A DNA stretch of 64,000 bases. Source: an uncultured delta proteobacterium. GTDB taxonomy: Bacteria; Desulfobacterota; Desulfobacteria; Desulfobacterales; JAHEIW01. A program made the translations under genes and the position numbers. Positions 42,173 through 61,683 of this stretch are shown here, one piece after another (position 1 is the stretch's first letter; each line of letters opens with the position of its first letter). The notes under the pieces were generated by a model. That model searched no databases and had not been told where the DNA came from. It worked only from the letters and a program-made list of their open reading frames with translations. Location: positions 288,001 through 352,000 of the forward strand of contig CAVPNL010000005.1 of NCBI GenBank assembly GCA_963706575.1. Reading direction: 5' to 3'.

Positions 42173-42188
42173 TGGCATATTCTATGCT
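42173..42188 (+). promoter_or_regulatory. Sigma54 promoter of the hdr-like cluster
   Basis: TGGCATATTCTATGCT (GG-N10-GC). Confidence 0.7.
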
Positions 42189-42212
42189 CTTTATCCAGAC
42201 AACAGGTGCAAC

Positions 42213-42701
42213 ATGTCGTTAAATTTGTCTGCTATCCCCCCTAACAATGCAGAGGTCTTCTTGGCTCCAGAGTTTCAAAGAAAAAAAATACTCATCGTTG
42301 ATGATGAATTGGATATGCGGATTTTCCTCTGCAATCTGCTGGGCAACTGCGGATATGAGCCCATTGAAGCAAATGATAGGACAGAGGGGATGCAAAAGGC
42401 GGAAAAAGAAAAGCCGGCGTTGATCATTTTGGATGTCATGATGCCCAAGGAAGACGGCATTCTAATGTATCGAGCGCTCAAGGCGCATGAAGAACTGAAG
42501 CATGTGCCGGTGATTATGGTGTCAACCATCGATCAGAAAATGTTTTCATTCTACCATAAATTGCAAATGTCCTCTCGGGATAAAGCCATTTCTGAATCGG
42601 GAGCTTATTTAGAGAAACCGTTGCAAACCGAAAAACTCATCCAACTGGTCCGGAGATTTACCGATGCAGATGAATTCGCGATTACACGAGATGAAAAATA
42701 A
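42213..42701 (+). CDS. Single-domain response regulator
   Basis: IVDDE, ILDVMMP, EKP. Confidence 0.85.
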   Translation: MSLNLSAIPPNNAEVFLAPEFQRKKILIVDDELDMRIFLCNLLGNCGYEPIEANDRTEGMQKAEKEKPALIILDVMMPKEDGILMYRALKAHEELKHVPVIMVSTIDQKMFSFYHKLQMSSRDKAISESGAYLEKPLQTEKLIQLVRRFTDADEFAITRDEK

Positions 42702-42716
42702 AAGAAGGGGTCTGAA

Positions 42717-45007
42717 TTGATAACAGGTATTGATTCCGAACTTTATCGCGAGCTGGCTAAATTCGGAGCCAAGGATATGGAGATCTGCATGCAGTGCGGT
42801 ACCTGCAGTGCATCGTGTCCCCTGTCTAGCGGGATGCATGCGTTTCCACGTAAGATATATCGTTATCTTCAACTTGGCCTGAGGGACAAGCTGCTCAAAT
42901 CGTCTGTACCCTGGCTGTGCTATTACTGCGGTGACTGCAATACGGACTGTCCGCGGGGGGCCGAGCCGGCCGAGACGATGATGGCCACCCGCCGCTGGCT
43001 GACCGCCCAGTACGACTGGACCGGGCTCGCCAGGCGGTTCTATCTTTCCGAGGCCTGGGAAATCGGTGCGCTAATTACCGTTGCCCTGGGAATCATTGTG
43101 CTCTTCGCACTTTTTCACGGGCCGGTGGTCACCGATCGTGTTGCCGTTAATACCTTCGCACCGGTTATGTGGATTGAGATCGGCGATTTGGCAATGGCCG
43201 CCATCCTGTCAGCTTTCCTGCTGTCAAACGCATTTAGAATGTATCGCTTCATCATGAGCGACATAAAGGTGCCGTTTTGGCTTTATATTACAGAAGCCAG
43301 AGCCTTTGTCCTCAACTTTGTAACCCAGAAACGCTGGCGGAAATGCGGGGAAGACCGCAGTCGTTGGCTGAAGCACTTTATTCTGGTGAGCGGTTATCTG
43401 ACCATGATGTCGCTGGTCATTGTTTTTATCCGCTGGTTCCAGGTCGACGACAGCAGCTGGCATTTCACGAGTATTTTCGGTTATTACGCCACCGGTGTCC
43501 TGCTTGTCATTACGGTGGAGATGTTCCGCAGCCGGCTTAAGAAAGAGGAATCCATCCATCGCTATTCAGCGTTTTCCGACTGGCTTTTTTTGATTCTACT
43601 TTTCTTTACGACGCTAACCGGCATTATGATGCACGCCCTGCGCATTGCCGGGTGGCCGATGGGAACATATGTCATGTATGTCATCCATCTGGCAGTGGCC
43701 GTACCGATGCTGATCATCGAGGTCCCTTTTGGAAAATGGTCCCATCTTTTCTACAGGCCGCTGGCCATATTTTTGGCGAACGTCAGGGAGAAGGCCTCAA
43801 AAGACTCCGGGGTCGAGGTTGAGGATGTCATTGCCGAAGCCAGCGAAATTTTCATGAGCTGCCTACAATGCGGTACCTGCACGAGCGTATGCCCGTGGAA
43901 TGCGGTTATGTCCTACAGCCCGCGCCGGATTCTGCGGCAGCTCACTTTGGAAACCGGAACCGAACAGTCCATTGACCAAGCTGTCTGGAGCTGTGTGACG
44001 TGCAATGCGTGCGGTGTGAACTGTCCGCGCGGTATCGAGATCATCGATGTCATCAAAGCGGTGCGGGGGCTCAATGTCAGCGGCGGAAAAATACCGGCGT
44101 CCTTGGTGGCGCCGCTTGATAGCCTGAAGGCCAGCGGTAACCCCTGGGGCGGTGATCGCACAAAGCGGCTGGAATGGGCCGGAGACCGGAACCTGCCGGT
44201 GTTTACACCTGAGCACGAGTACTGCCTGTTTGCCTGTTGTACAACCGCTTATGACCCCGGCAACCGCAAAGCCGGCCAGGCGATCTTCCAACTGCTGGAA
44301 TATGCGGGCATTGCTTTTGGCACCCTCGGTGCTGAAGAAAGTTGCTGCGGCGATCCGGCTTACAGGCTGGGGGCGAATGAAATTTTCTCGGAGCTTGCCC
44401 TTAAAAATACCGATTTTTTCCTGCAGGCCGGCGTACAGAAGATACTGACCACCTCGCCCCACTGCCTGAACACATTTAAAAATAGCTATGACCGGCTTGA
44501 AAGATTCATGTTGCCAGTGAGCATTACACGGAGGTTCTCGACCGGCTGGTCATGCAGGGCTGCTTAAAACCGACCCTGGAAGTGCCCGCCACGGTCACCT
44601 ATCACGACCCCTGCTATCTGGGGCGTCACCAAGGCATCTACGAAGCGCCCCGCCGGGTTTTGATGAAAATTCCCGGGCTTACACTGGTCGAGATGGCAAG
44701 CACGAAAGAAAACAGTTTGTGCTGCGGGGGCGGCGGCGGCGGAGCCTGGGGCGATTATCCCCGCAATCAGCGCTTGGATGTGCTGCGTGTCAAAGAAGCG
44801 CTCAGCACCGGCGCTGAGGTGATTGCCACAGCCTGTCCCTATTGCCTCCGCATGCTGAACGATGCTGTCAGGGCACTGGGTGTCGGGGATCGAATTGTCG
44901 TCCGGGACCTGGCTGAGTTGCTATTGCAGTCGGTGATGATGAAAGATGAGGCCAAGATGACGGAACACGTTGATTTGGATGTTGATCGGGAGGTCTGCCA
45001 TGTCTGA
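42717..45007 (+). CDS. QmoC-like (2x4Fe-4S plus membrane heme b) fused to HdrD-like (2x4Fe-4S plus 2 CCG) protein; frameshift near 44500
   Basis: CMQCGTCSASCP/CYYCGDCNTDCP, about 6 TM helices ending VPFGKWSH, then CLQCGTCTSVCP/CVTCNACGVNCP, GNPWG, ESCCG; continues YHDPCYLGR, CCGGGGG, ACPYC in ORF 44552..45007. Confidence 0.8.
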
Positions 45008-48000
45008 ACGAATCGGTTTTTATATTTGCCACTGCGGCATCAATATCGCTTATCGGGTTCGGGTGCAGGAAGTCGCTGCGTACGTGGCGGCTTTGCCGAA
45101 TGTGGTCATTTCGCGGGATTACCTGTTCATGTGCTCCGATCCCGGGCAGGAACTTATTGAAAATGATATTCAAGACTACCAACTTACGCGTGTGGTTGTG
45201 GCCTCCTGTTCCCCGCGCATGCACGAAAAAACCTTTCGGGCGGCCTGCCAGCGGGCCGGTCTCAATCCCTATCGGGCGTTTCACATGGTGTGCGTGCGAG
45301 AGCATGTTTCGTGGGTCACCGAGGATGAAGACGAGGCCACCCAAAAGGCCAAGACCCTGGCGGTCGCAGGTATCTTACGGGTTGCCTACCAATATGATCT
45401 AACACCGGCCACGTTTCCGGTATGCACCAACACCCTGATCGTGGGCGGGGGCATCGCCGGCATGCAGGCCGCTCTTGATATTGCCAAGGCCGGGTTTAAA
45501 GCTTACCTGGTGGAAAGACAGCCCACCGTCGGCGGACACATGCTCCAATACGACAAAACCTTTCCTACCCTTGACTGCGCGGCCTGCATCGGTACGCCCA
45601 AGATGGTCTCCGTGGCCCAGGAAGCAAAGATCGAGCTGCTCTCATACAGCGAGGTGGAGGATGTCAGCGGCTTTATCGGCAACTTCAAGGTAAAAGTCCG
45701 CCGCAAATCGCGCTACATAGAGGATAGCTGTACCGGGTGCGGCGAGTGCGAAAAGGTTTGCCCGATCGAGTTTCCCAATGAATGGGACGTGGGCACAAAG
45801 ACCAGAAAGGCGATCTACCGGCCCTTCCCCCAGGCCGTACCCATCACCTACTGTATCGACAAGTACGACCGTGCCCCGTGTGTTCAGACTTGCCCGGCCG
45901 GCACCAATGTACAGGGCTACGTATCGCTGGTTAAATCGGGCAGGTACCGGGAAGCGGTCAATCTCATCATGCAGAAATTACCTCTGCCGGGAACCCTCGG
46001 ACGCATCTGCCCGGCCCCCTGTGAAAAAGAATGTCGCCGCGCCGAGGTGGACTCCGCCATAGCCATCCGTGATCTGAAACGGTTTGCAGCAGACCAGGTG
46101 GACCTTTCCGAGCTACCCCTGCCGGAGATCGAAGACCGGCCGGAGAAGATAGCGGTTATCGGTTCAGGGCCCGCCGGTCTGACTGTCGCATATTATATGC
46201 GATTAAAAGGTTACGCGGTCAGCATTTTCGAGGCGCTGGATCAAGCCGGCGGGATGCTGCGGGTAGGGATTCCAGACTACCGTCTGCCGCCGGAGATACT
46301 GGACAATGAAATCAATTTTATTCTCAAACACGGGATAGAAATCAGAACCGGCGTTCGATTCGGATCGGACCTGTCCCTGGAAGGTCTCCGCCAAGACGGC
46401 TTTGCCGCCATATTTTTGGGAATTGGCGCCCATGACGCCATCCGGATGAACATTCCGGGAGAAGAGCAGGCCGCAGGCGTCATCGATGCCCTCGCTTTTT
46501 TAAGAGAGGTAAACCTGGGCAAAGGAGAGGTTCCCGGCAAGCAGGTCATTGTCATCGGCGGCGGCAATGTGGCCATAGACGCCGCCCGGGTGGCAAAACG
46601 TCTGGGGGCCGAAAAGGTGACGGTGGTTTACCGCCGCTCCGAGCGGGAAATGCCGGCCTATCCTGAAGAATTACACGGCGCCAGGGAGGAAGGTATTGAA
46701 TTTTCATACCTGACTGCTCCGGTAAGTATCCATCGTCAGGGCGGAAAGGTGACCGGGTTTGAATGCATTCGCACCGAACTCGGCCCGCCGGATGCCAGCG
46801 GGCGAAGGCGACCGCTGCCGGTTGAGGGATCTGAATTCGTCATGGCGTGTGATGCGGTCATACCGGCCATCGGTCAGAAAATTGATGTAACCTGGAGCGC
46901 AGGGGAGCCCGATCTCAAACTGACTTCGCGAAACACTTTTACGGTAAATACCACCACTTTGCAAACCAGCCTTCCCGATGTATTTGCCGCCGGTGATGCC
47001 GTGACCGGCCCGGCGACGGTCATCGAAGCCGTGGCGGACGGGCACAAGGCGGTGGCGGCCATGCACCGCTTTATCAGCGGTGAGGATCTGGATCAGTACG
47101 CCGCCGAACGGGTTGCCGAAGAACCTCCGGGAACCAAATGGCAGGCAATTCCCGAAAAGATCAAAAATACTGCCCGGGTGGTATCCGAACATCTGGATCC
47201 CGCCCAACGGGCTAAAAATTTCGATGAGGTTGACCGCAATTTTTCCGAGGCGGCAGCCAGGCAAGAAGCCGCCCGCTGTGTGGATTGCGGAGGATGTTGC
47301 GAATGCAAGCTCTGCGTGGACGCCTGTGAAGCCAAAGCGATCAATCACGAAATGGCGGATAGGGTCGAAGAAATCGAGGTGGGCTCAATCATTGTCGCTA
47401 CCGGCTTCGATCCCCTCGACCCGACCCCGATGCAGCAATACGGATACGGCAGGTACGCCAATGTTTTCACCAATCTGGAGTTCGAGCGGCTTTCCAACGC
47501 CACCGGACCGACGGGCGGCAAGCTCCTTAAGCGGGATCCCAACGACCGCTTGAAATTCAGCGCGGCGCCGAAAAGCGTGGCGATCCTTCATTGCATCGGC
47601 AGCCGCGATATCAACTACCACGAGTATTGCTCGCGCACCTGCTGTATGTATGCGCTCAAGTATGCCCATCTTCTCAAAGACAAGTGTGGACACGACACGC
47701 AAGTTTACAATTTCTACATCGACATGCGTTGCTTTGGCAAAGGGTATGAGGAGTTTTACAAGCGCGTCCAGAGCGAGGGTGTGCGCATGGTTCGCGGCAA
47801 GGCTGCGCGGGTGGAAGAAAACGACGGTATCCTGACGGTAACCGCCGAAGATACACTTTCGGACCGAATTGTGAAAGTTCCGGTAGAGATGGTGATCCTG
47901 TGCACCGCCATGGAGGCCCGTTCGGACGCCAACACCGTGTCGCGTATCTTTGGGATCAGCCTTGGAAGTGACGGTTTCTTTCAAGAGGAACACCCTAAAC

Positions 48001-48380
48001 TTGAACCTGTGTCGACTCCTACCAGCGGTGTTTTTTTGGCCGGAGCCTGTCAGGGACCCAAGGATATTCCTGATACGGTGGCGCAGGCCAAGGGAGCCGC
48101 GGCCGAGGCGCTGGCCCTTAGCGCCTCCGGAGAGGTCGCGGTGGCCCCGATGATTTCATTCATCGACCCGGACATATGTATCGGCTGCCAGGCATGTATC
48201 GGACTGTGCGCCTACACGGCTATCGAATTCAATGAGCTCAAAGGGGTTAGCGAGGTAAACGAAGCCGTGTGTAAGGGTTGCGGTAGTTGTTCCGCCCACT
48301 GCCCCAGCGGGGCTGCCAAGGTTCGGCACTTCACCGACAAGCAGGTTTTTGCGGAAATCGATGGTTTATTAGCCGGTTAG
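45000..48380 (+). CDS. hdrA: HdrA-family flavoprotein with inserted GltD-like NAD(P)H/FAD module (HdrL type)
   Basis: RIGFYICHCG, GGGIAG, KTFPTLDCAAC, inserted CPAG...GSGPAG...GGGNVAIDAAR module, HCIGSRD/CSRTCC, C-terminal 2x4Fe-4S. Confidence 0.88.
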   Translation: MSERIGFYICHCGINIAYRVRVQEVAAYVAALPNVVISRDYLFMCSDPGQELIENDIQDYQLTRVVVASCSPRMHEKTFRAACQRAGLNPYRAFHMVCVREHVSWVTEDEDEATQKAKTLAVAGILRVAYQYDLTPATFPVCTNTLIVGGGIAGMQAALDIAKAGFKAYLVERQPTVGGHMLQYDKTFPTLDCAACIGTPKMVSVAQEAKIELLSYSEVEDVSGFIGNFKVKVRRKSRYIEDSCTGCGECEKVCPIEFPNEWDVGTKTRKAIYRPFPQAVPITYCIDKYDRAPCVQTCPAGTNVQGYVSLVKSGRYREAVNLIMQKLPLPGTLGRICPAPCEKECRRAEVDSAIAIRDLKRFAADQVDLSELPLPEIEDRPEKIAVIGSGPAGLTVAYYMRLKGYAVSIFEALDQAGGMLRVGIPDYRLPPEILDNEINFILKHGIEIRTGVRFGSDLSLEGLRQDGFAAIFLGIGAHDAIRMNIPGEEQAAGVIDALAFLREVNLGKGEVPGKQVIVIGGGNVAIDAARVAKRLGAEKVTVVYRRSEREMPAYPEELHGAREEGIEFSYLTAPVSIHRQGGKVTGFECIRTELGPPDASGRRRPLPVEGSEFVMACDAVIPAIGQKIDVTWSAGEPDLKLTSRNTFTVNTTTLQTSLPDVFAAGDAVTGPATVIEAVADGHKAVAAMHRFISGEDLDQYAAERVAEEPPGTKWQAIPEKIKNTARVVSEHLDPAQRAKNFDEVDRNFSEAAARQEAARCVDCGGCCECKLCVDACEAKAINHEMADRVEEIEVGSIIVATGFDPLDPTPMQQYGYGRYANVFTNLEFERLSNATGPTGGKLLKRDPNDRLKFSAAPKSVAILHCIGSRDINYHEYCSRTCCMYALKYAHLLKDKCGHDTQVYNFYIDMRCFGKGYEEFYKRVQSEGVRMVRGKAARVEENDGILTVTAEDTLSDRIVKVPVEMVILCTAMEARSDANTVSRIFGISLGSDGFFQEEHPKLEPVSTPTSGVFLAGACQGPKDIPDTVAQAKGAAAEALALSASGEVAVAPMISFIDPDICIGCQACIGLCAYTAIEFNELKGVSEVNEAVCKGCGSCSAHCPSGAAKVRHFTDKQVFAEIDGLLAG

Positions 48381-48394
48381 AAAGGAGTTATCAG

Positions 48395-48817
48395 ATGAGC
48401 GAATTTGAACCGACAATTGTAGCCTTTTTTTGCAACTGGTGCACCTATACGGCGGCGGATTTAGCGGGTACGTCGCGCCTGTCATATCCTCCCAATGTAA
48501 AAAGCATTCGGGTGATGTGCACCGGTATGGTGGATCCCCAATATGTGATCAAAGCCTTTCTGGAGGGGGCTGACGGGGTGTTGATCAGCGGGTGCCATCC
48601 GGGTGATTGCCATTATATCAACGGGAATTATAAAGCCCGCCGGCGGATAAAGCTGCTCAAGGAGATTCTGCCGAAATTCGGTTTTGATCAACAACGGTTG
48701 CGCTTAACCTGGATCGGTGCCAGTGACGGCATCCAGCTTGCCGAGGTCATGCGTGATTTGGTTGCTCAAATCAAGGCTTTGGGACCCAGCCAGGCCAAGT
48801 TGAAGATGGTGATTTGA
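48395..48817 (+). CDS. mvhD: MvhD-type [2Fe-2S] subunit
   Basis: FFCNWCTYTAADLAG, RVMCTG, GCHPGDCHY. Confidence 0.9.
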   Translation: MSEFEPTIVAFFCNWCTYTAADLAGTSRLSYPPNVKSIRVMCTGMVDPQYVIKAFLEGADGVLISGCHPGDCHYINGNYKARRRIKLLKEILPKFGFDQQRLRLTWIGASDGIQLAEVMRDLVAQIKALGPSQAKLKMVI

Positions 48818-48829
48818 GCCACGGGTTTT

Positions 48830-48970
48830 TCGATTGTGGATTGCAGATTTTGGATTTCGGATTGAAAAGACCTTGGGCAGCCGGAAACATAGGTATCTAT
48901 AATTGAGCTGCCCGTAAACCGTAACCAGGGACAAGAGGCAAGCTGCCAGTGACCAGAGGCCAGTGACAGG
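48830..48970. repeat. Intergenic 7-mer tandem repeats
   Basis: GATTGTG-GATTGCA-GATTTTG-GATTTCG-GATTG, then CCGTAAA-CCGTAA and CCAGTGA-CCAGAGG-CCAGTGA units. Confidence 0.6.
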
Positions 48971-48984
48971 TAAAGGAGATAACA

Positions 48985-50127
48985 ATGGCGATTACGGCTA
49001 AAATTGATGTGAAAGATAAAGACATTTTAGGATCTCTGCAGGGTTTTTTTAAGAATATTCTTGAAACTGATGAAATCCAATCACTGCTGGTGCCCCAGCA
49101 TTTGCCGATGAAAAACATGGTTATGCCGACCCTGGTGACCGATCCGAATCATCTGAATGGGGTTGATCCGCTATCGCCGGCCTTTCCGATGAACGCCGCC
49201 AAGATTGTTTCACGGCTGACCCGCAAGCCGATGGGCGCGAAGGTCGCGGCGGTATTGCGACCGTGCGAGATTCGGGCCTTTGTTGAGCTCGTGAAACTTA
49301 AGCAAGGGCGCACCGAGGAAGTTATTCTGATTGGAGTGGATTGCCTGGGAGCCTTCCAAAACAAAGATTATTTTCAGCTGGTGGGACAGAACGCAGCCGA
49401 GTCGACGGTCGTGTTCCATGAAAACGTGTTGCGCGGCAAAAGCACCGAGATTGACGGTTTGGACCTGGCGCCCGCCTGCAAGGCCTGTGAATATCCGGTG
49501 GCAGACAATGCCGATATTCTCATCGGCCTATACGGTATGGATATCGACCAATTTCTGCTGGTCCAGTCGCAAACTGAGGCTGGAGATCAGATCCTAAAGC
49601 AGATGAATCTTTCGACTACAGAGGCGCCCCGCGCCCGCCAGGATGCCATCAATGCCCTAATTACCCAACGCACCAAGTACCGGGATGACATGTTTGCCAG
49701 GACGCGTGAGGCGACCGACAGTCTGGAAAAAATGTCGAGCTACTTTGCCACCTGCGTCAACTGCTATAACTGCCGGGTGGCCTGTCCGGTTTGTTACTGT
49801 AAGGAGTGCGTTTTTGTCACCGATGTATTTAACCATGATCCGTCTCAGTATTTGCAGTGGGCCAATCGCAAAGGGATTATTAAGATGCCGACCGATACAC
49901 TTTTCTACCACTTAACCCGATTGGCACATATGAGCACGGCCTGTGTGGGCTGCGGCCAGTGTTCCAATGCCTGCCCGAATGATATTGCGGTCATGGAGCT
50001 GTTTCGAACTATCGCCCACGACACTCAGAAAGCTTTTGACTATGAGGCAGGCAAAAGTATTGAGCAAGAACCACCACTTTCGGTATTTCGTGAGGACGAA
50101 TTTGCCGAGGTTGTGGGCATAAATTAA
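48985..50127 (+). CDS. FdhB/FrhB-like Fe-S subunit
   Basis: LRPCEIRA, GVDCLG, ACKAC, CVNCYNCRVACPVCYCKEC, CVGCGQCSNACP. Confidence 0.8.
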   Translation: MAITAKIDVKDKDILGSLQGFFKNILETDEIQSLLVPQHLPMKNMVMPTLVTDPNHLNGVDPLSPAFPMNAAKIVSRLTRKPMGAKVAAVLRPCEIRAFVELVKLKQGRTEEVILIGVDCLGAFQNKDYFQLVGQNAAESTVVFHENVLRGKSTEIDGLDLAPACKACEYPVADNADILIGLYGMDIDQFLLVQSQTEAGDQILKQMNLSTTEAPRARQDAINALITQRTKYRDDMFARTREATDSLEKMSSYFATCVNCYNCRVACPVCYCKECVFVTDVFNHDPSQYLQWANRKGIIKMPTDTLFYHLTRLAHMSTACVGCGQCSNACPNDIAVMELFRTIAHDTQKAFDYEAGKSIEQEPPLSVFREDEFAEVVGIN

Positions 50128-50170
50128 GGGGTCATTGCGCGAAACGAACCAACGAAAAGGTGAGGGTTAT

Positions 50171-53100
50171 ATGACCAAAAAAATTGGTAAAGCCCTGGTT
50201 GTCGGAGCCGGCATCAGCGGTATCCGCTCGGCATTGGACCTGGCTGAATATGGTTACGGCGTTACCCTGATAGACCGGTCCTGCCATATCGGCGGCATTT
50301 TGAGTCAACTCGACTATCAGTTTCCCACAGACAGGTGCGGTATGTGCAAAATGCTTCCTTTAGTCGATCGAGATGCAAGCTCGCAATATTGCCTTCGCAA
50401 GGGGCTTTTTCATGAAAATATCGACATTCTGCTTGGCACCGAGCTGGTTTCAATCGACGGTGAGCCCGGCCGTTTCCAGGTCCAGCTGAAGGAGCATCCC
50501 AATTGGGTCAATTCCGATCTGTGCACCGGTTGTGGAGAGTGTACCCAGGTTTGCCCCGTGGAGGTCCCCGACGAATTCAATGCCGGGCTGGCAAAGCGCA
50601 AAGCAATATACCTTCCGGTCCCCCATGCCATTCCCAACACCTATATTATTGATGTTACTTCCTGTAACGACTGCAGGGCCTGTATCGAGGCTTGCCCAAC
50701 AGATGCCATTCACCTGCCCGAGCAGAAACGCGAGGGATTTCGCATTCTTGTGGTCGATGATGAACTCATCGTGCGCGATTCCCTCAAGGAATGGTTGCAA
50801 GAGGAAGGCTTTGCGGTGGACATGGCCGCCTCCGGTTCGGAAGCTTTAGATCAACTGACAAAACAGGAATATCAATTAATGCTGCTGGATATCAAGATGC
50901 CGGGCATGGACGGTGTCGAGGTCCTGCAAAAGGCCAGAGAAAGCTTCGCGGATATCAATGTGATTATGATGACCGCTTATGCAACCGTTGAAACCGCTGT
51001 TGAAGCCATGAAAATAGGGGCTCTGGATTATCTGATAAAACCATTTGATCCCGAAACCCTGATCCCCATGGTCCTGAGAATATACCAGGATATGACGGCG
51101 GCTGAAGGCCGACAGTTAGAAGTTGGGGCCATCGTACTTAGCGGTGGCACGGCCTTTTTCGACCCGGCCGGCGGGAAAAACACGTTTGGCTACGGGATGT
51201 ATCCGAACGTTGTCACCAGCCTTGAGTTTGAACGCATATTAAGTGGTACCGGCCCCTTTGAGGGACGGCCGCTGCGGCCGCTGGACGGAAAACCGGTTCA
51301 TAAAGTCGCCTGGATTCAATGCGTAGGCTCGCGCGATTTGCAAACGGATGCAGACTTTTGTTCAAATATCTGTTGCATGGTGGCCATTAAAGAAGCTGTC
51401 CTGGCCAAAGAAAAAATCGACGCGGATTTGGAAACAACCCTTTTTTATATGGATATGCGTACGTTTGGCAAAAGCTTTCAACGCTACCGGGAGCAGGCTG
51501 AAAGCCTTCATGGTGTGCGATTCGAAAGGGGTCGGGTCCACTCTGTCATACAGGATGAAGAAAGCGGAGATATGATTATCCGCAGTGTGGCCATTTCCGG
51601 AAAATCCACTGAATCACATTTTGACATGGTGGTGCTCACCGTCGGCCAGCGTCCGGCCGGTGGCACCTCTGAATTGGGCGAAATGCTGGGGCTGGAGCTG
51701 AATCCATGGGGCTTTGGAAACACTATCCCTTTTTCCCTGACGCGAACCAACCGCAGCGGGATTTTGCTGGGCGGTTCATTCGCGGGTCTCAAAGACATCG
51801 GTGACTCGGTGACCCAGGCCTCGGCGGCTGCCTTATCGGCATCCCAGGTGATTCATTCCAGTGGGGGTAGCCTATCGTTGGAGTCGCCGCCAGCCCTGCC
51901 CATAGCTGCTCTGGCGCGTGAAATCCCCAGAATTATGGCGGTCGTCTGTACCTGCGGGGGCAAACTTTCAGGATTTAATGACCCGGCAGAAATTGTTCAA
52001 CACCTTAAAACCAACCCTGTGGTGAAACAGGTTGAATTTCTGGAACACATCTGCACGGCCGACGGCTGGGCACAGCTGGCGGAAATGGTGGAAACGAACA
52101 AACCGAACCGGCTTTTGATTGGCACTTGCATGCCCTATGTCTATCAACGCAAACTCCAGGAGTTCGGCCGGCAGGTGGGTATAGATCCTGCCCTGATGGA
52201 AGTGGTTGATGTAAATACGGAATTAAAGGACAAACGGCTACTTTTGCGCAATATGCTTTCTGCTTTAGAGATGGGGATTTCCAAGCTCAAATGGGTGGAC
52301 CCATCTTCAACCGTTACAATTCCAGTCGCTCAACGTGCTTTGGTCATCGGTGGCGGTATTGCCGGCATGACGGCTGCTCTGGCAATTGCCGATCATGGAT
52401 TTCAGGTGGATCTTGTGGAACAGGCAGAACAGTTGGGAGGAAATCTGAACTGGCTGCAGCGCACCCTGGAGGGGTATTCGATAGAGACATTGCTGGGGGA
52501 CACCCGTCTCCTGGTTGAAAGGCATCCCAAGATTGGCGTTCATATCCAGTCCCAGGTTATTAGTTCTGTTGGCCAGGTAGGGAGTTTTTTGACTACCTTG
52601 GAAGGCCCGCAAAATTCGGTCCAAGCCTTGGAGCATGGTGTGACTATTTTAGCCACCGGCGGGGCGGAAGCCGTAACCGTTTCTTATGGATATGGTACAA
52701 ATCCGTCGATTATCACCCAGAAAGAATTAGAGCAAAAGCTATCTGCCGGCAAGATCGAACCCGAGCAGCTCGATTCGGTAGTGATGATTCAATGTGTGGA
52801 CTCGCGCGAGGAACCGCGCAATTATTGCAGTCGGGTGTGTTGTGCCAATTCGCTCAAGCAAGCCCTGGATCTCAAGGAAAAAAACCCTGAACTTTCAGTA
52901 TACATTCTTTATCGGGACATGATGGCCTACGGATTTGCCGAGGCTTATTACACCCGGGCCCGCAAAGCCGGTGTGATCTTCATCCAGTATCAGATTGATG
53001 AAAAACCCCGGGTCCAATGCGACCCGGCAAGCCTGGAGGTGGCCGTTTTTGAGCCCATCCTCGGTCGGCCGCTTCAAATTCAGACGGATCTTGTGGTTTT

Positions 53101-53575
53101 AGCCACCGGCGTTGTTCCAAATCTTCCTCAGGGCTTGGTGGAAATTTTTGGCGTAACACTTGATCAGGACGGCTTTTTCCAGGAGGCCGAATCCAAGTGG
53201 CGCCCGGTTGACGCCCTGAAAGAGGGCGTTTTTGCCTGCGGTCTGGCCCACTCCCCTCGAAACATACCGGAAGCAATTACCACTGCCGAGGCCGCCGCCG
53301 CAAGAGCCTTGAGAATACTTGCCCGTGAGCGCTTGCGGTCGGGAAAAGTAGTGGCCACTGTCCGTCACAGTCTGTGCAGTCTGTGTGAACAATGCATTGA
53401 TGCATGTCCATACGGTGCTCGCGTGCTGGATCTTGATCATGAAAAGGTACTGGTAAATCCGGCAATGTGCCAGGGGTGTGGGTCCTGTGCGGCAGTCTGC
53501 CCCAACAGCGCATCCGTTTTGGAGGGTTTTCAGGAACAGCAAATGTTTGAGGTAATTGATGCCGCCATTGGATGA
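50171..53575 (+). CDS. hdrA: Double-FAD HdrA-like protein with an internal response-regulator receiver domain (about 50741-51090)
   Basis: VVGAGISG...FPTDRCGMC, ferredoxin insert, then RILVVDDE...LLDIKMPGMDG...MMTAY...IKPF, then QCVGSRD/CSNICC, a second GGGIAG, QCVDSR/CSRVCC, and C-terminal 2x4Fe-4S. Confidence 0.88.
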   Translation: MTKKIGKALVVGAGISGIRSALDLAEYGYGVTLIDRSCHIGGILSQLDYQFPTDRCGMCKMLPLVDRDASSQYCLRKGLFHENIDILLGTELVSIDGEPGRFQVQLKEHPNWVNSDLCTGCGECTQVCPVEVPDEFNAGLAKRKAIYLPVPHAIPNTYIIDVTSCNDCRACIEACPTDAIHLPEQKREGFRILVVDDELIVRDSLKEWLQEEGFAVDMAASGSEALDQLTKQEYQLMLLDIKMPGMDGVEVLQKARESFADINVIMMTAYATVETAVEAMKIGALDYLIKPFDPETLIPMVLRIYQDMTAAEGRQLEVGAIVLSGGTAFFDPAGGKNTFGYGMYPNVVTSLEFERILSGTGPFEGRPLRPLDGKPVHKVAWIQCVGSRDLQTDADFCSNICCMVAIKEAVLAKEKIDADLETTLFYMDMRTFGKSFQRYREQAESLHGVRFERGRVHSVIQDEESGDMIIRSVAISGKSTESHFDMVVLTVGQRPAGGTSELGEMLGLELNPWGFGNTIPFSLTRTNRSGILLGGSFAGLKDIGDSVTQASAAALSASQVIHSSGGSLSLESPPALPIAALAREIPRIMAVVCTCGGKLSGFNDPAEIVQHLKTNPVVKQVEFLEHICTADGWAQLAEMVETNKPNRLLIGTCMPYVYQRKLQEFGRQVGIDPALMEVVDVNTELKDKRLLLRNMLSALEMGISKLKWVDPSSTVTIPVAQRALVIGGGIAGMTAALAIADHGFQVDLVEQAEQLGGNLNWLQRTLEGYSIETLLGDTRLLVERHPKIGVHIQSQVISSVGQVGSFLTTLEGPQNSVQALEHGVTILATGGAEAVTVSYGYGTNPSIITQKELEQKLSAGKIEPEQLDSVVMIQCVDSREEPRNYCSRVCCANSLKQALDLKEKNPELSVYILYRDMMAYGFAEAYYTRARKAGVIFIQYQIDEKPRVQCDPASLEVAVFEPILGRPLQIQTDLVVLATGVVPNLPQGLVEIFGVTLDQDGFFQEAESKWRPVDALKEGVFACGLAHSPRNIPEAITTAEAAAARALRILARERLRSGKVVATVRHSLCSLCEQCIDACPYGARVLDLDHEKVLVNPAMCQGCGSCAAVCPNSASVLEGFQEQQMFEVIDAAIG

Positions 53576-53596
53576 ACGGCTTAAAAAAAATTAAAA

Positions 53597-55900
53597 ATGT
53601 TCAAGTTTATCAAAAATATCCGGCGTCGGTTGGCGACCAAGCTCATTTTAACAGTCGGCCTGACCCTGCTCATTACGATTTCTACCTGGGCTTACTTTAA
53701 TATCAATTATCAGGAAAAAAAGCTCATGGAGAATATTGTAGAAGGAACCGATCGGTTAACCAATACCATCAAACTCGGCACGCACTATGCCATGATGCTA
53801 AACTCGCGGGATGATATCAACCAGATCATTAATAATATCGGTAGGCAGAAAGAGATCGAAACCATTCGTATTTATAATAAGGGCGGGAAAATCAAATATT
53901 CCAACCAGCCGACGGAAATTGATACCGCCACCAATATAAAAGATGAAGCTTGTTATATCTGTCACCGGACGGAACCACCGCTGTTTGAACTCAGCCTGGA
54001 AGAAAGAACACGTATCTTTACCTCTGCCAAAGGCTATCGTTTACTTGGAATTATTAGCCCTATTTGTAATGAGCCTGGGTGTGCGACCGATGCCTGTCAT
54101 ATACATCCGAAAGGCAAAAAAATTCTTGGAGCGCTAGATGTGGTGGTCTCTCTGGAAGATGCGGATAAAGAAATCTTCATGACCCAAAAAGAAGCGTTTG
54201 GTTTGGCGGGTGCTATTTTCCTGGTGACATCCACCATTATTTTTCTTTTCCAGTTGCGGTTTGTCAATCAACCGATCCGGAAATTAATCGATGGAACCCG
54301 TACCATCGCAGAGGGGATTCATCCCAGCAGAGTCGACATTGACCAGGACGATGAGATGGGAAAACTTGCGGTTGCCATCAATCAGATGAGTAAAAAAATT
54401 GCCGAAAAACAGGCCGAACTGAATGAACAAAGAGACGAATACCAGACCCTCTTTGAAAGGGCACCCTGCCTGATTACGGTTCAGGATCGAAATTATAAGT
54501 TGCTAAGATATAATCGCGAATTCGCAAAACAGTTTGATCCTCAGCCCGGCGAACATTGCTATCATTCATATAAAGGGCAAGATCAGAAATGTGAAAATTG
54601 CCCGGTTGAACACACATTTGAAGATGGTCAAACCCATTATGGTGAGGAGACCGGGCTTAACAAAGACGGTACCCCGGTTCATTGGATTCTGCGAGCATCT
54701 CCGATTAAAAATGCGAAGGGTGAAATTGTTGCCGCCATCGAGATGAGCCTAGACATTACACAGCGCAAACAGCTTGAGGACAAACTGGAAAAGTCTGAGA
54801 AGAAATATCACGAAATTTTCAACAATATGCCAAACCCCGTTTTTGTATTGGACCTGGCGTCATTGAAGATACTCGACTGCAATGAGAGTGTAAAACCAGT
54901 ATACGGATTTGATAAAGATGAAGTCATTAACAGATCCTTTTTGGATCTCTTCATCGGAAAAGACCGTGATGAATATGCGTCAAAGCTAAAAAACGTTTCC
55001 GTGATCAACCAGGCAAAACAGCAGAACAAAAATGGCAAGACACTTTTTGTGACCATCAGAATTTCGCCTTCGGATTATTCGGGCAATAAGGTGCTTCTCG
55101 TGAGCACCAGCGATATCACCAAACGGCTCGAAACCGAGCAGCAGTTAATCCAGGCCAGCAAGATGGCAACCTTGGGAGAGATGGCCACCGGAGTTGCCCA
55201 CGAGCTCAATCAGCCGCTTTCGGTGATAAAAACCGCCAGCAGTTTTTCCATAAAAAAAATAAATAAAAACGAGCCGATCGAAGCGGAAATCTTGTTCAAA
55301 ATTCTGGCAAAGATAGACAGTAATGTGGATCGAGCGACAAAAATAATTAACCATATGCGGCAATTTGCGCGTAAATCTGAGATGGATTTGGAGAAAGTCC
55401 AGATCAACGACATTCTCGAAAGGGCTTTTGAGATTTTCAGCCAACAGCTTAAGTTAAGAGGGATTGAAGTCATCTGGTCCATCGACAAGAAATTACCGAA
55501 GATCAATGCGGATCCCGGTCGCATGGAGCAGGTGTTTATCAACCTTTTATTGAATGCCAGAGACGCAATTGAGGATAGATGGGGTAATCAAGAGCCGCAA
55601 TCAAGTGAAAAAAAGATTATTCTAAAAACAGTCTGTGATGGGCACAACGTCATCTGCGAGGTCTGTGATACCGGCATAGGGATTTCGGAATCTATTTCAG
55701 ATAAAATATTTGAACCTTTTTTCACGACGAAGGAAGTCGGCATGGGCACGGGGCTGGGGTTATCCATCAGTTATGGGATCGTGAAAGATTGCGGTGGTAG
55801 TATACAGGTCGTTCCCAACAAGCCAGAGGGCGCCTGTTTTGTTTTAAAATTTCCGCTGCAGGATATAAACGATGCAAAAGAAATTACTACTCGTCGATGA
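53597..55900 (+). CDS. Heme-c-motif HAMP PAS-PAS sensor histidine kinase; paralog of 15920
   Basis: CYICH and CATDACH between two TM helices; [14 protein letters not shown]. Confidence 0.9.
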   Translation: MFKFIKNIRRRLATKLILTVGLTLLITISTWAYFNINYQEKKLMENIVEGTDRLTNTIKLGTHYAMMLNSRDDINQIINNIGRQKEIETIRIYNKGGKIKYSNQPTEIDTATNIKDEACYICHRTEPPLFELSLEERTRIFTSAKGYRLLGIISPICNEPGCATDACHIHPKGKKILGALDVVVSLEDADKEIFMTQKEAFGLAGAIFLVTSTIIFLFQLRFVNQPIRKLIDGTRTIAEGIHPSRVDIDQDDEMGKLAVAINQMSKKIAEKQAELNEQRDEYQTLFERAPCLITVQDRNYKLLRYNREFAKQFDPQPGEHCYHSYKGQDQKCENCPVEHTFEDGQTHYGEETGLNKDGTPVHWILRASPIKNAKGEIVAAIEMSLDITQRKQLEDKLEKSEKKYHEIFNNMPNPVFVLDLASLKILDCNESVKPVYGFDKDEVINRSFLDLFIGKDRDEYASKLKNVSVINQAKQQNKNGKTLFVTIRISPSDYSGNKVLLVSTSDITKRLETEQQLIQASKMATLGEMATGVAHELNQPLSVIKTASSFSIKKINKNEPIEAEILFKILAKIDSNVDRATKIINHMRQFARKSEMDLEKVQINDILERAFEIFSQQLKLRGIEVIWSIDKKLPKINADPGRMEQVFINLLLNARDAIEDRWGNQEPQSSEKKIILKTVCDGHNVICEVCDTGIGISESISDKIFEPFFTTKEVGMGTGLGLSISYGIVKDCGGSIQVVPNKPEGACFVLKFPLQDINDAKEITTRR

Positions 55901-56993
55901 TGAAAAGGATGTCCGCGAGGTTCTGCTCTTACCCTTGTCGGATTTCGGATACCATATTTTCGAAGCCGAAAATGGAGAGGAAGCTTTGCGCCTTTTTAAG
56001 GAAGTCCAGCCGCCGATCGTTATGACTGATATTAAAATGCCGGGCATTGATGGTATCGAGCTGCTGCGAAAGATAAAACATGAAAATCCGGAGACCGAAG
56101 TCATTATGATCACCGGGCATGGGGATATGGATCTGGCAATTAAAAGTCTTAAATATGAAGCCACAGATTTTATCACGAAACCAATTAACGTCGATGCTCT
56201 GGAAATCGCACTCCAAAGGGCTATGGATCGAATTATTACCCGACAAAAACTACGCGAGTATACCGAAAACCTCGAGCAGCTTATACGCGAGAAAACCGAG
56301 TTGCAGAGCCATTTATCTTCGCTAGGTTTGATGATTGGATCCATATCTCATGGAATAAAAGGCCTGTTGACCGGATTAGATGGCGGTATGTATCTGCTGA
56401 ACTCAGGTTTTTCGAAAAAAAACAAAGACCAGACTGAAGAGGGGTGGGAAATCGTAAAGTCGATGGTCGAACGAATCCGCAAGATGATTATGGATATCCT
56501 TTTTTATGCCAAGGAAAGAGATCTCAAATTGGAGCGCATCGATATCCGAAATTTTGTCGAAGAGGTGGTCAAAGAACTTGAACCAAAAATGAAAAGTCAA
56601 AACATTAAATTCATAAAGAATTTCGATACTGATCTAGGAGAGCTCGAAGTTGACGCAACCTATGTCCATTCTGCCCTGATTAATATCATTGAAAATGCAA
56701 TAGAAGCCTGCAGCCAAGACCAAACAAAAAACTCGCCTGAAATTGTTTTCAGCGTCAAAGCGCACAAAAAAAGCGTCATCTTTGAAATTGCTGATAATGG
56801 CATTGGTATGAATCGTGAAACTCAGGAAAGAATTTTTACACCATTTTTTTCGTCCAAAGGGAGCAAAGGAACCGGACTAGGGCTTTTTGTCTCCAACACC
56901 ATCATCCAGCAGCATGGTGGTGTAATCAATGTGAAATCCACCTCCGGTCAAGGTGCTGTTTTTCAGGTAAAAATTCCGAAACAGGAGGGATAA
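55872..56993 (+). CDS. Receiver-histidine kinase hybrid
   Basis: LVDDE, MTDIKMP; SHGIKG H-box; GTGLGL. Confidence 0.9.
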   Translation: MQKKLLLVDDEKDVREVLLLPLSDFGYHIFEAENGEEALRLFKEVQPPIVMTDIKMPGIDGIELLRKIKHENPETEVIMITGHGDMDLAIKSLKYEATDFITKPINVDALEIALQRAMDRIITRQKLREYTENLEQLIREKTELQSHLSSLGLMIGSISHGIKGLLTGLDGGMYLLNSGFSKKNKDQTEEGWEIVKSMVERIRKMIMDILFYAKERDLKLERIDIRNFVEEVVKELEPKMKSQNIKFIKNFDTDLGELEVDATYVHSALINIIENAIEACSQDQTKNSPEIVFSVKAHKKSVIFEIADNGIGMNRETQERIFTPFFSSKGSKGTGLGLFVSNTIIQQHGGVINVKSTSGQGAVFQVKIPKQEG

Positions 56994-58124
56994 TGAGAAC
57001 TTTCGACGATTTAATTAAAGAAGTGCAAAACCCCGGACTTTGTCATCGTTGTGGTGCTTGTGTCGCCTTTTGTGCAGCCATTAACTACGGGGCTTTAGAG
57101 TTAGATTCAGAAGGGCAACCAAGATATGCGGATAAAGATAGATGTATCAAGGGTGGGCTGTGCTATGTAATCTGCCCGGCGATCGATGAGTTAAAAGAAG
57201 AAACAAAAAGAAAGGTGGATTGGGCCGCGCCCATGGGGCGGGTATCCGATATCCGTATTGCGCGTGCGAAAGACCCGGCTATCCGCAACGCAGCTACGGA
57301 TGGGGGCGTTGTCACCGCGTTACTGGTTTATTTATTTCAAAAGCGTCAGATAGATGCCGCTGTCGTGACAAAGCCTGTCGGGCCATTCAAGCGTGAATCG
57401 TTTTTAGCCGCAACTGAGGAGGATATTCGCAGTTCAGCCGGATCTTTCTTTGATATCTCATATGGCATGAAAAGCTTAAGCGACCATTACTCGACTTATT
57501 CCCAGATAGGCGCATTTCATTCTAATATCAAAAATGGATTTCAACGTGTTGCCTTCGTCGGGACTCCCTGCCAGATACAGGCCATTCGCAAAATGCAAGC
57601 GATCAATATCTTCCCGTCGGATGCCGTCAAGTTATGTTTGGGACTGTTATGTTCGGGAAACTTCATTTTTGGAGAAAAACAACGGCGCCAGGTTGCCCAA
57701 ATTGGCAATTTTCAATGGGAGCGTGTCAAGAAAATTAATATCAAAGAAAAGCTGATGGTGCATTTAAAAGGCGGTGAAGTGAAAACAATTAAGCTAAACG
57801 ATCTTAACTTCATGAAGCGGTTTCCTTGTAATTTCTGTGATGACTTTTCGGCCGAGTATGCCGACATTTCATTTGGCGGGCTGGGTGCAGATGAAGGGTG
57901 GACCACCGTTATTATACGCTCCCCGATAGGAAGGAAATATTTTTCATGGGCTAAGTCCAAAGCAATTGAAGAAAACGAGGAGGGTCGCCATCTGCATCAT
58001 ACCTAGTAAGGCACTCAACAGGGTCAGACATTGGTCGCAGAAGAAGAAAACATTGGCCCTTGAAAGTCGAAAAACGCTGAGTAGTAAATTTCCAGACCTA
58101 AAGCTGGAAGATTGTTCTTTATAA
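56993..58124 (+). CDS. FrhB/FdhB-family (F420 hydrogenase beta-like) flavoprotein; C-terminus probably extended by a +1 frameshift near 58000
   Basis: CHRCGACVAFC, TDGGVVTALL, VGTPCQ, GLLC, CNFCDDFSAEYADISFG; the +1 frame continues SKALNRVRHWSQKKK to TAA 58124. Confidence 0.75.
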
Positions 58125-59644: not shown

Positions 59645-60070
59645 ATGGAACAGAAAAAATTTGATTTTTGGCAGGATTATTCCCTGCGTTATCTGGAAAT
59701 GGCCTTTCGTACTGACCGCCGAGGAATTGTTAAACATTCGGATGGTTACGGAAAGAGAACCGGTGTCTGCGGTGATAGCGTTGCAATGTATTTGACGATT
59801 CGTGGCGGTCGCATCCAATCGGTGTCATATGAAACCAATGGATGCCTGAGTACCAACGCCTGTGCCAACACGGTTGCTGAATTGATCGAAGGTAAGGATA
59901 TGGGATCGGCCTGGGAGCTAACACCCGAAGATGTGATGAAATACCTGGAAACATTACCCTCGGAAAATGCCCATTGTGCCGAACTTGCGACCGGGGGCCT
60001 TTATCTGGCGCTACAAAATTTTCGGGAATTCAAGCATGATCCGAGAAAGAAGCTGTATGGGGGAAGTTGA
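59645..60070 (+). CDS. IscU/NifU-N-like Fe-S scaffold protein
   Basis: TGVCGDS, TNGC, HCAELA. Confidence 0.85.
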   Translation: MEQKKFDFWQDYSLRYLEMAFRTDRRGIVKHSDGYGKRTGVCGDSVAMYLTIRGGRIQSVSYETNGCLSTNACANTVAELIEGKDMGSAWELTPEDVMKYLETLPSENAHCAELATGGLYLALQNFREFKHDPRKKLYGGS

Positions 60071-60144
60071 CCGTTTTGCATGTTTGAGTGGGGTGCAAAA
60101 ATTTAGGTGATCGAGGACCATACACGCAAGGTGTCGAATTTAAC

Positions 60145-60180
60145 AAAATAAGGGGTGGTAAATTAGCCACCCCTTATTTT
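60145..60180. terminator. Bidirectional terminator between convergent genes
   Basis: AAAATAAGGGGTGG...CCACCCCTTATTTT. Confidence 0.8.
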
Positions 60181-60217
60181 CTGGTGTATTCAATCGCTTC
60201 TTACCCCGGCCACCCAC

Positions 60218-60583
60218 TTAAGATTCTTCAGCAGATTTATTTTCCAGGGCATCGATGCGCGCGTTGATTGCATCGAATGACTTTTTTAAGTAATCCGCCT
60301 CGGCTTTCAACATGTCCATTTCATCGGCTGCGTTCGCCGGATACACCGGACCCGCCACGGGTGGGTACCATTCCCATCCGTAACCCCTGCCATAACCGCG
60401 CCGCAGGCCGGCACCGGTATTAAATCCGCCTCTGAAACCGCGTCTCAACCCCAAACCGCGGCCATACCCGTAGCCTCTGGCGTAAGTGGGAATGGTTTCA
60501 GCTCTTGCCGGGTTGCAGCGCCCTTTGGTTCCGCCGGTCATGGGGCCAGCACCCATAGGACCTGTTCGATCAAAACCTGGCAT
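60218..60583 (-). CDS. DUF5320-family Gly/Arg-rich protein with C-terminal coiled coil
   Basis: MPGFDRTGPMGAGPMTG..GRC, GRG repeats, E..MLKAEA.YLK...I.ARI..LE; AAAGGAGG RBS. Confidence 0.8.
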   Translation of the reverse strand: MPGFDRTGPMGAGPMTGGTKGRCNPARAETIPTYARGYGYGRGLGLRRGFRGGFNTGAGLRRGYGRGYGWEWYPPVAGPVYPANAADEMDMLKAEADYLKKSFDAINARIDALENKSAEES

Positions 60584-60739
60584 AGGATCACCTCCTTTCG
60601 CTATCATTATAGCGGTTTTCAAAAAAACGTTCCACTATTCAAACGTTTGTTTCTACAACCACTTATGCCGCATTTCCGCAATTCGGAACATTATTATGAA
60701 AAGCGGTATAATTCGTAAAAGGTTTGATTTATAGATTAT

Positions 60740-60940
60740 TTAAGACCGCTTGCCGCGGCCCTGTCCAGCACTGCTGCCTTCGCCCTGACTTCGGCCGGCA
60801 CCTCTGCCTGATCTCCGGCCGCGGCCTCTGCCGCCCTGTTCCTGCGGTTTGGAAGTTCCGCCATTTCGGCCACATTTCCCCTGGCCTTTTCCCGTTTTAG
60901 GACCCTGGCCCTGCGGACCGGTTCGATCTCCTTGTGGCAT
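60740..60940 (-). CDS. Short DUF5320-like Gly/Arg-rich protein
   Basis: MPQGDRTGPQGQGPKTGKGQGKC; AGAGGAGG RBS. Confidence 0.7.
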   Translation of the reverse strand: MPQGDRTGPQGQGPKTGKGQGKCGRNGGTSKPQEQGGRGRGRRSGRGAGRSQGEGSSAGQGRGKRS

Positions 60941-61047
60941 AATTCTAACCTCCTCTTTGAGTAAAGTCATGGATTAATTGTTATTCATTATTTGGTTTAG
61001 CCGATGCTGCATAAGACACAACGGGCTGCAAATTCTTGCCGGCCAGC

Positions 61048-61383: not shown

Positions 61384-61683
61384 TGGGGCTAATCTCCTAT
61401 TACGCTCATTTGAGCATAATATAATACCTTAAAAAATTAAAGTCAAGAGAGAATATGCTCATAAGAGCAAAATATTTTATCCAGGACCGCTGTGTATTGA
61501 TTGACCTGCTGTACGGGGCGAGGCCTTTGATTTCTAACTTGAATTGATAAACGAGTCAGGCTGTGAAAATGCCGGCATTGCCCCTTTACCGCATATTCAA
61601 AAAATCGATCAATCAAGCCGGAATTATTGAAAATTTCGATTTGACCTATCACCGAATATCGATTATTAAGTCCTAGTGAGGAT

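Follow-up and report, generated by a model that had tools for sequence, protein, structure and literature searches.

The closest described counterparts of the locus presented here are HdrA of HdrABC-MvhAGD and its relatives (PDB ID: 5ODC, 8RVY, 7BKB), the type II HdrA of methane-metabolising archaea (PMC12054007), BamE of the class II benzoyl-CoA reductase of Geobacter metallireducens (bioRxiv 10.64898/2026.04.10.717634), and the HdrABC/HdrL cluster Sfum_0819-0824 of Syntrophobacter fumaroxidans (PMC5947623). The locus lies in a 64,000-nucleotide stretch of an uncultured delta proteobacterium (contig CAVPNL010000005.1, positions 288,001 to 352,000; "the window", numbered from its first letter), in which the gene at 50171-53575 encodes an HdrA interrupted by a phospho-receiver domain. 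This receiver-HdrA fusion is real and widespread, and belongs both to the receiver-enzyme fusions and to the fused HdrA. In the explanation that we consider probable, phosphorylation of its residue D240 by an upstream hybrid kinase would alter where the low-potential arm of the enzyme lies, how accessible it is or how it is assembled.

The HdrA of solved structure share with this protein all domains, the cluster cysteines and the equivalents of E356/K409. Type II HdrA possess two thioredoxin-reductase domains, as here, and type III carry a GltD insert, as does the neighbouring HdrL; the main text describing them lists 28 HdrA classes and does not contain the word "receiver". BamE is likewise a fused HdrA dimer with an MvhD-type adaptor. 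Its cryo-electron microscopy study (bioRxiv 10.64898/2026.04.10.717634) assigns bifurcation to the first flavin adenine dinucleotide (FAD), and the role of low-potential exit, adopted here from that source, to the inserted ferredoxin domain, and reports that the distance from this domain to the neighbouring cluster goes from 23 to 12 Å between states. By motif and position, not by sequence alignment, K280 of the first FAD of BamE corresponds to K407 here, and its CxxC pair C59/C62 to C56/C59. The second site of BamE has a Gln and is non-bifurcating, whereas the HdrA described here retains the Lys (43/48 proteins). The main text of the preprint does not mention a receiver, and no BamB/BamC (tungstopterin) or BamGHI genes were found among the open reading frames of 38500-58000, to which the search was confined.

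The clusters of the S. fumaroxidans type, with which the hdrL/hdrA locus VIII of Desulfobacterium autotrophicum (PMC2702500) was also compared, have hdrC-hdrB, replaced here by an upstream membrane HdrF-like gene. Sfum_0821, taken as an orthologue of 50171-53575 by its name and gene order, bears the automatic name "receiver modulated" and is expressed, with mean intensity-based absolute quantification values of 6.6 and 6.7 with sulfate vs 4.5-5.2 without (PMC5947623 and its supplement). Receivers are also found on a metabolic enzyme of thioredoxin-reductase fold in the receiver-thioredoxin reductase response regulators (PMC5847659). Those fusions are terminal and on simple enzymes, whereas here the receiver lies within a respiratory-complex flavoprotein that has several clusters, at the proposed end of a multi-kinase cascade. 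No paper discussing a receiver in HdrA was found within the reach of the literature search, outside which some reviews lie; the word is absent from the main texts of PMC2702500, PMC5109826, PMC12054007, PMC10553843, bioRxiv 10.1101/2024.09.26.615249 and bioRxiv 10.64898/2026.04.10.717634, and no solved structure with this architecture occurs in the PDB copies searched. An initial annotation of the window, made from the sequence, knew of no characterised example; this holds for the literature searched, but the domain combination already exists in automatic annotations, as does the expression of Sfum_0821 in the published data. New here are the kinase assignment with its co-loss, the relaxed selection, a Usp-REC-Usp sibling and the ancestral one-step system.

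Architecture of the fused HdrA and its receiver domain

The main features of the gene are as follows.
50171-53575, + strand: fused-dimer HdrA, 1134 residues (domain scan, 5ODC alignment, structure model)
Codons 50336/50345, + strand: C56/C59 pair of the first FAD (5ODC alignment, conservation)
50486-50719, + strand: inserted 2x[4Fe-4S] ferredoxin domain (domain scan, alignment), predicted low-potential exit by analogy with HdrA and BamE
50735-51100, + strand: receiver domain (Pfam, homologue conservation, structure model)
51230-51391, + strand: first-FAD residues E354 and K407, equivalent to HdrA E356/K409 (5ODC alignment, conservation)

A single open frame spans 50135/50171-53575, the 1134 residues being counted from the ATG at 50171. 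Aligned to the HdrA of PDB ID 5ODC, it displays in order FAD1a, the inserted ferredoxin, the receiver, FAD1b, an N-terminal-type four-Cys domain, FAD2 without a ferredoxin insert, and a C-terminal ferredoxin. Both FAD domains are thioredoxin-reductase-like with a four-Cys cluster site each, and the inserted ferredoxin, N-terminal-type and C-terminal ferredoxin cluster domains are all found. By its sequence, this is an HdrA dimer fused into one chain and carrying two FAD domains, of the BamE/type II kind, a fusion that the initial annotation had missed. The best fold matches of its AlphaFold model are methanogen HdrA structures; the cut-offs of the methanogen HdrA equivalog models are not reached (NF040770, 692/1100; NF041778, 542/1400; NF041891, 519/1300). 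K407 and E354 are conserved in 88/88 aligned proteins. The second FAD site is less strict (K896 in 43/48 proteins, E854 in 36/48), the four-Cys sites C384/397/401/402 and C875/886/890/891 are invariant (48/48), and the cysteines of the N-terminal-type domain are present in 42-43/48. This HdrA may bifurcate electrons, the conserved flavin residues being necessary signs only.

The receiver was proposed in the initial annotation to be complete, in one uninterrupted frame, and to keep its active site, and each of these points is borne out. Pfam Response_reg (PF00072) matches residues 192-300 over model positions 1-109/111 (E 2.4e-32). The acidic pocket D196/D197/E198 (within VDDE) is encoded at 50756-50764, helix-1 W208 at 50792, the phospho-acceptor D240 by a GAT codon at 50888, the switch T268 at 50972, and K290 by AAA at 51038; the HdrA fold resumes with EVGAIV at 51119. 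The receiver is inserted into the linker that joins the ferredoxin domain to FAD1b; this gap has six residues in receiver-less relatives and 131 here, 125 residues being added. By homology with BamE, the receiver would be located at the hinge leaving the inserted ferredoxin domain. The AlphaFold model (mean predicted local distance difference test 89.7; predicted template modelling score, pTM, 0.87) displays a receiver of five strands and helices, with less confident junctions, and its single-chain pTM of 0.87 does not settle the placement of this 120-residue domain relative to the enzyme.

D196, D197, E198, D240, T268, Y287, K290 and P291 are intact in 120/120 top homologues, and D240, T268 and K290, which were no part of the selection pattern, in 48/48 diverse proteins down to 45% identity. 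All 120 listed homologues come from independent assemblies, are 70-96% identical over residues 100-420, and bear PF00072 at the matching position, which excludes the chimeric assembly that the initial annotation had named as a possible refutation. Among the assembled records listed over the window, none spans either receiver junction. The initial annotation also placed the GltD-like module of the neighbouring HdrL in the same region. It is nearby, some 25 residues before the receiver in the HdrA frame, but at a different site: the module (residues ~288-765) sits between the two ferredoxin cluster motifs, inside the ferredoxin domain, and the receiver sits after the second motif.

Distribution of the receiver and of its candidate kinase

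The spread of the fusion was counted with the N-terminal 188 residues of HdrA, as a receiver-containing query scored seven candidates per genome and undercounted the phylum sample (10/401). The N-terminal query gives an orthologue-level match in 212/401 class genomes and matches 30/401 genomes of the phylum sample. Among the 211 class genomes with a listed frame, 160 have a long form (at least 1120 residues), which is ~40% of the sampled class genomes (160/401), 25 have one of 950-1090 residues, and 26 a cut or intermediate one. All translated long proteins contained the insert, and the 22 short ones inspected all lack the receiver. Outside these counts stand G511 and G756 (selenocysteine-type paralogues), G501 (cut by a contig end, receiver present) and the 26 cut or intermediate frames. 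In the phylum sample, four genomes from beyond the window's order have an intact receiver (G163, G139, G330, G281) and two a decayed one (G398, G038). A pattern scan of GTDB found the fusion at 18/80 loci, the remainder being unrelated receivers. Cultured carriers are S. fumaroxidans, by the name of Sfum_0821, and Desulfatirhabdium butyrativorans, which has an entry in the P0128 cluster.

On trees lacking the receiver columns, all receiver-bearing proteins group in one clade (support 1.0 and 0.993, the second tree not including 21 rows). Within this clade are nested receiver deletions (G657; G783 and G628; P0131 and P0135; P0136) as well as decayed receivers (G398, G038, P0134, P0139; G504), which argues for a single gain followed by several losses. 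In G657 (L261), a low-complexity repeated linker of ~45 residues stands in place of the receiver and looks like a deletion caught in passing. The receiver has a mean identity of 65%, vs 52% for FAD1b and 51% for FAD2. Its conservation equals that of the FAD-binding N-terminus where the kinase described below is present, whereas it is the fastest-changing part of the protein where this kinase is absent: in kinase-free comparisons, it is 67% identical vs 74-88% for the other regions (G552/G504), and 41% vs 60-78% (G398/G038). These comparisons give good support to a receiver that works as a phospho-acceptor and is under selection.

The candidate direct phosphodonor is encoded ten kilobases upstream of hdrA.
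38541-40107, + strand: REC-(PAS)-HisKA-HATPase hybrid kinase with its His at 39442 (class pairing, co-occurrence, DHp tree)

Its PAS part is deduced from orthologue length and sequence, with no Pfam PAS match at 1e-7 in the two fragments of the frameshifted gene. Helix 1 of the HdrA receiver reads IVRDSLKEWL, of an "R.S...W" type (hereafter W-type) found in exactly two receivers of the genome, the other being in a sigma-54 regulator on contig C4. Kinases with the His-box "HE(I/L)NNP..G(I/L)L(N/T)" also number exactly two, the partner of the C4 regulator and 38541-40107. In a tree of DHp regions, 38541-40107 groups with the kinases of W-type partners (89/78), and the kinases downstream of hdrA, 53597 and 55872, fall in other clades. 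Of 18 genomes with an intact receiver, 15 encode this kinase in the 16-20 kb retrieved on each side, and three encode it elsewhere. The kinase is found at E<=1e-70 in 144/160 long-form genomes (152/160 after deeper checks), and is missing in 4/4 independent events of receiver loss or decay (G657; G783 and G628; G398 and G038; G504). On four independent lines of evidence, the likely direct phosphodonor is this upstream kinase and not the downstream ones.

The HdrA receiver also has a sibling.
L341:13157-14488, L342:7143-8468, L346:6325-7722, L018:10796-12112, L159:5067-6377: Usp-REC-Usp proteins

In these, an HdrA-type receiver separates the two Usp domains of a tandem protein akin to the Usp of the tmc cluster. 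This receiver is a near-copy of the HdrA receiver and nests within its clade (100/99), and the Usp-REC-Usp gene directly follows the kinase gene in seven genomes (G649, G477, G668, G621, G535, L018, G397). Such proteins have 79 homologues at E<=1e-120; none was found in the window's genome.

The proposed phospho-switch and alternative explanations

Two further kinases are encoded immediately downstream of hdrA.
53597-55900, + strand: membrane sensor kinase with a periplasmic sCache/PAS-like domain, HAMP, two PAS and an HELNQP His-box at 55199 (domain scan, fold, orthologues)
55872-56993, + strand: REC-kinase hybrid of the HGIKG class (domain scan, loci, DHp tree)

The periplasmic domain of 53597 has two motifs, CxxCH at 53951 and Cx4CHxH at 54080. 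CxxCH is found in 32/35 orthologues and is invariant in 67/67 aligned sensor domains of this type, and Cx3-5CHxH is found in 33/35 orthologues. A CxxCH in a periplasmic PAS-like domain leads to the prediction that it binds haem. The sensor domains of Geobacter GSU0935 and GSU0582 bind c-type haem. The fold of the 53597 domain resembles theirs (PDB ID: 3B42, E 2.4e-6, and 3B47, E 2.8e-4, respectively), although WalK-type domains score higher. Fold and CxxCH are thus common to all three, but 53597 is a kinase, not a chemoreceptor, and has the second Cx3-5CHxH motif.

The 53597 sensor domain also occurs in 48 of 62 loci drawn by likeness to the HdrA receiver alone and mostly from other phyla, chiefly Acidobacteriota and Bacteroidota. 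In 45 of these 48, it is joined to the His-box class of 38541-40107 and followed by an adjacent W-type regulator. This pair of a two-haem-motif periplasmic kinase and a W-type sigma-54 regulator is widespread (L022-L080; Acidobacteriota, Bacteroidota and others). In the simplest history, Desulfobacterota would have divided a one-step haem-sensor system in two and grafted its receiver into HdrA. Since its sensor is ancestrally tied to W-type receivers and to this His-box class, 53597 probably belongs to the pathway, acting one step before the direct donor. The N-terminal receiver of 38541-40107 shares its helix-1 type with the hybrids 55872, 28100 and 18196, and 53597-type genes usually directly precede such REC-kinase hybrids.

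The signal would accordingly pass from the haem-motif kinase 53597 to the receiver of the hybrid 38541-40107, then to the His of this hybrid, and then to D240 of HdrA. The HdrA receiver would be the phospho-switch of the bifurcating-type subunit of an HdrL-MvhD-FdhB-like-HdrA-HdrCB/HdrF complex, with probably NAD(P)H in, and ferredoxin plus DsrC or the membrane out. As the receiver replaces the short hinge leaving the inserted ferredoxin domain, phosphorylation would most probably shift the position or accessibility of the low-potential arm, or act on complex assembly through its α4-β5-α5 face. We lean slightly towards the unphosphorylated form being on and phosphorylation being a brake, because kinase-less lineages retain an intact enzyme core while their receiver drifts or is cleanly deleted. 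In another HdrA, close to the N-terminus of the window's HdrL, two or three tandem receivers are fused at the N-terminus (P0158, P0296-P0302), which shows that the receiver-HdrA link arose twice.

Several observations weigh against this explanation or limit the evidence for it. The kinase gene is frameshifted in this assembly (one base, near 39310), probably by an assembly error: it is open in relatives, and the contigs of two other studies are one base shorter at 39308. In favour of the kinase assignment, a W-type regulator stands beside 25/26 kinases of the 38541-40107 His-box class and beside 1/17 others (L222, whose box is of the same kind), in a sample of 43 adjacent pairs of kinase and regulator taken from the genome and the retrieved loci, but the kinase classes were defined post hoc and the pair sample was enriched by searches with this kinase. 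Its presence in 0/22 receiver-less genomes likewise speaks for the assignment; these genomes belong mostly to few outgroup clades and related genomes are not independent, so that a 2x2 count overstates the association and the four nested events are the fair number. The kinase also occurs in 18/189 genomes with no detected HdrA orthologue, and 8/160 long-form genomes lack it after re-checks. In two of these eight (G604, G553), the locus encodes a related kinase that shares the His-box, G504 is decayed, G599 and G761 were only loosely inspected, and the drafts G416, G706 and G667 are unexplained. In the enzyme core, no residues are retained only with the receiver (three weak columns, all present in loss lineages too), so that no docking surface is evident. 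Finally, the insertion point is tolerant and enzymes without a receiver occur in this operon type as well, so that the enzyme does not need its receiver. The receiver-less sister cluster with this operon type (L243-L263: G611, G755, G561, G544, G427, G442, G409, G576 and others) is often flanked by a sensory gene with a PocR domain, like 30052.

Information might also flow in the opposite direction, the receiver being a phosphate sink or redox reporter. The redox or assembly state of HdrA would then set the rate of loading or unloading of D240, drain the kinase network and tune the sigma-54 transcription of hdr and tmc genes, with the enzyme activity itself unswitched. All the co-loss evidence is also compatible with such a role, for which speak the wealth of the locus in hybrid kinases, single receivers and two PAS-sigma-54 activators, the repeats and sigma-54-like sites before both operons, the lack of a co-conserved docking surface, and the reuse of the receiver in a Usp protein without catalytic output. 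We consider it unlikely, as the only other evident target of the kinase here is a regulator with its own kinase, which leaves little to drain, and as a sink has no need of a position at the hinge of the low-potential arm; the second, independent receiver-HdrA fusion fits selection for enzyme control.

The initial annotation had the receiver gate the enzyme as well, with 53597 or 55872 as direct donors, a version that we regard as improbable. A 53597-type gene does follow the operon in most loci and its sensor domain has the ancestral tie to W-type receivers, but it also adjoins receiver-less HdrA (G612, G462). The His-boxes of the two kinases, of the HELNQP and HGIKG classes, pair with receivers of other classes: the REC-kinase hybrids that come after 53597-type genes have another kind of helix 1, and 55872-type genes adjoin single-domain receivers, which 55872 probably serves rather than HdrA. 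Moreover, a second cassette of this kind (15920-19335) stands at the tmc genes, where there is no HdrA. What survives of that proposal is the likely place of 53597 one step upstream. A receiver kept as a tolerated passenger or structural spacer, devoid of any signalling role today, appears very improbable: clean deletions and decayed copies exist and the hinge tolerates insertions, but the active-site residues are invariant, conservation equals that of the FAD-binding N-terminus, and relaxation is seen only where the kinase is missing.

Control of the low-potential arm by the upstream kinase is thus retained as the probable explanation. A bolder formulation, which we advance tentatively and at somewhat less than even odds, is that of a widespread three-step cascade from a periplasmic di-haem redox sensor through a receiver-gated hybrid kinase to the HdrA receiver. 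It would switch the low-potential arm of the bifurcating complex within seconds, probably shutting it when the periplasm turns oxidising. Such a cascade would represent the first case of a flavin-bifurcating enzyme under direct two-component control, and would have arisen twice independently in Desulfobacterota.

Neighbouring genes and significance

Upstream of hdrA, the operon and its control region comprise the following features.
40196-41935, + strand: PAS-PAS sigma-54 activator without receiver (domain scan)
41955-42187, + strand: two TTGCA-N-TGCAA inverted repeats (41955, 42066) and a sigma-54-like -24/-12 site (42173), of inferred function (motif scan)
42213-42701, + strand: single-domain receiver, first gene of the operon (domain scan)
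42717-45007, + strand: membrane QmoC/HdrC/CCG (HdrF-like) subunit, frameshifted near 44500 (domain scan, relatives' loci)
45003-48380, + strand: HdrL (type III HdrA) with a GltD-like NAD(P)H module inside its ferredoxin domain (domain scan, motifs)
48395-48817, + strand: MvhD/FlpD [2Fe-2S] adaptor (domain scan)
48985-50127, + strand: FdhB-like iron-sulfur protein (domain scan)

The order hdrL-mvhD-fdhB-like-hdrA is constant in all loci examined, as in the Sfum_0819-0824 type. Most relatives have hdrC-like genes, and downstream hdrC-hdrB, 3' of hdrA. The window has no separate hdrC and hdrB genes behind hdrA; there, as in some relatives, the membrane HdrF-like gene takes their place on the 5' side. 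The latter scores 221/300 on the QmoC equivalog model NF038018 and has extra HdrC/CCG domains, which sets the operon apart from QmoABC. HdrL carries GxGxxA and YRR motifs, which point to NADP(H) by the motif rule for NAD(P)H preference of PMC12054007.

TTGCA-N5-9-TGCAA inverted repeats precede the operon in 14/39 loci, where shuffling leads one to expect 0-7% per locus; sigma-54-like sites do so in 11/39. The tmc genes of the window are preceded by the same pair (repeat at 21196, site at 21458). A strict sigma-54 consensus scan of the window stays at chance level, with nine matches vs 5.4 expected. Together, the repeats and sites suggest a parallel transcriptional branch. The frameshifts at 39308 and ~44490-44560 are probably long-read indels, contigs from other runs lacking one base at 39308 and at 44492. 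An octahaem cytochrome gene ending at 15450 also seems broken up. Five metatranscriptome runs contain only 6-9% of the window's words; in one (X16), pieces of relatives cover the operon, which is no evidence of expression level or of this strain.

The stretch 15920-30564 holds a second cassette, made up of a haem-motif kinase (15920), a REC-kinase (18196) and a PAS-sigma-54 activator (19271), ahead of a tmc cluster. The latter comprises an unknown protein (21553), a tandem Usp (22090), tmcDCBA (23485-27320), a DivK-like receiver (27493), a hybrid kinase (28100) and a PocR-domain protein (30052). Between 30723 and 38096 are found an HpaB/4-hydroxybutyryl-CoA-dehydratase-like gene, a class V aminotransferase that resembles kynureninase and is seemingly truncated at 34979, and an MFS transporter. 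An FrhB-like protein (56993-58006, - strand) is convergent on the downstream kinase pair, and 59645-63496 harbors a NifU-like, a selenophosphate-synthetase-like (AIRS domains) and a YedF-like gene.

Elsewhere in the genome (G000), at C4:4074-11896, the other W-type regulator and its kinase, which has a Rossmann-like N-terminal domain, stand head to head with another fused HdrA, in which a GltD-like module is inserted and whose frame contains a TGA that may encode selenocysteine. Two further genes for fused HdrA dimers, both lacking a receiver and both with an in-frame TGA, are found at C4:340612-347226, followed by genes resembling flx genes, and at C15:253245-258574.

Bifurcating enzymes yield electrons of very low potential, which are costly if the enzyme is left running and dangerous when oxidants arrive. 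The control described in the main texts of the cited papers acts at the level of gene expression. A predicted built-in switch that is kept and lost with one kinase suggests that an energy-metabolism enzyme may also be controlled directly, and not only via its genes. A named likely kinase and natural receiver-less variants simplify the testing of this proposal. If true, the phospho-switch at the hinge would offer a direct handle on HdrA-type gating and a means of fast electron re-routing in sediment sulfate reducers.

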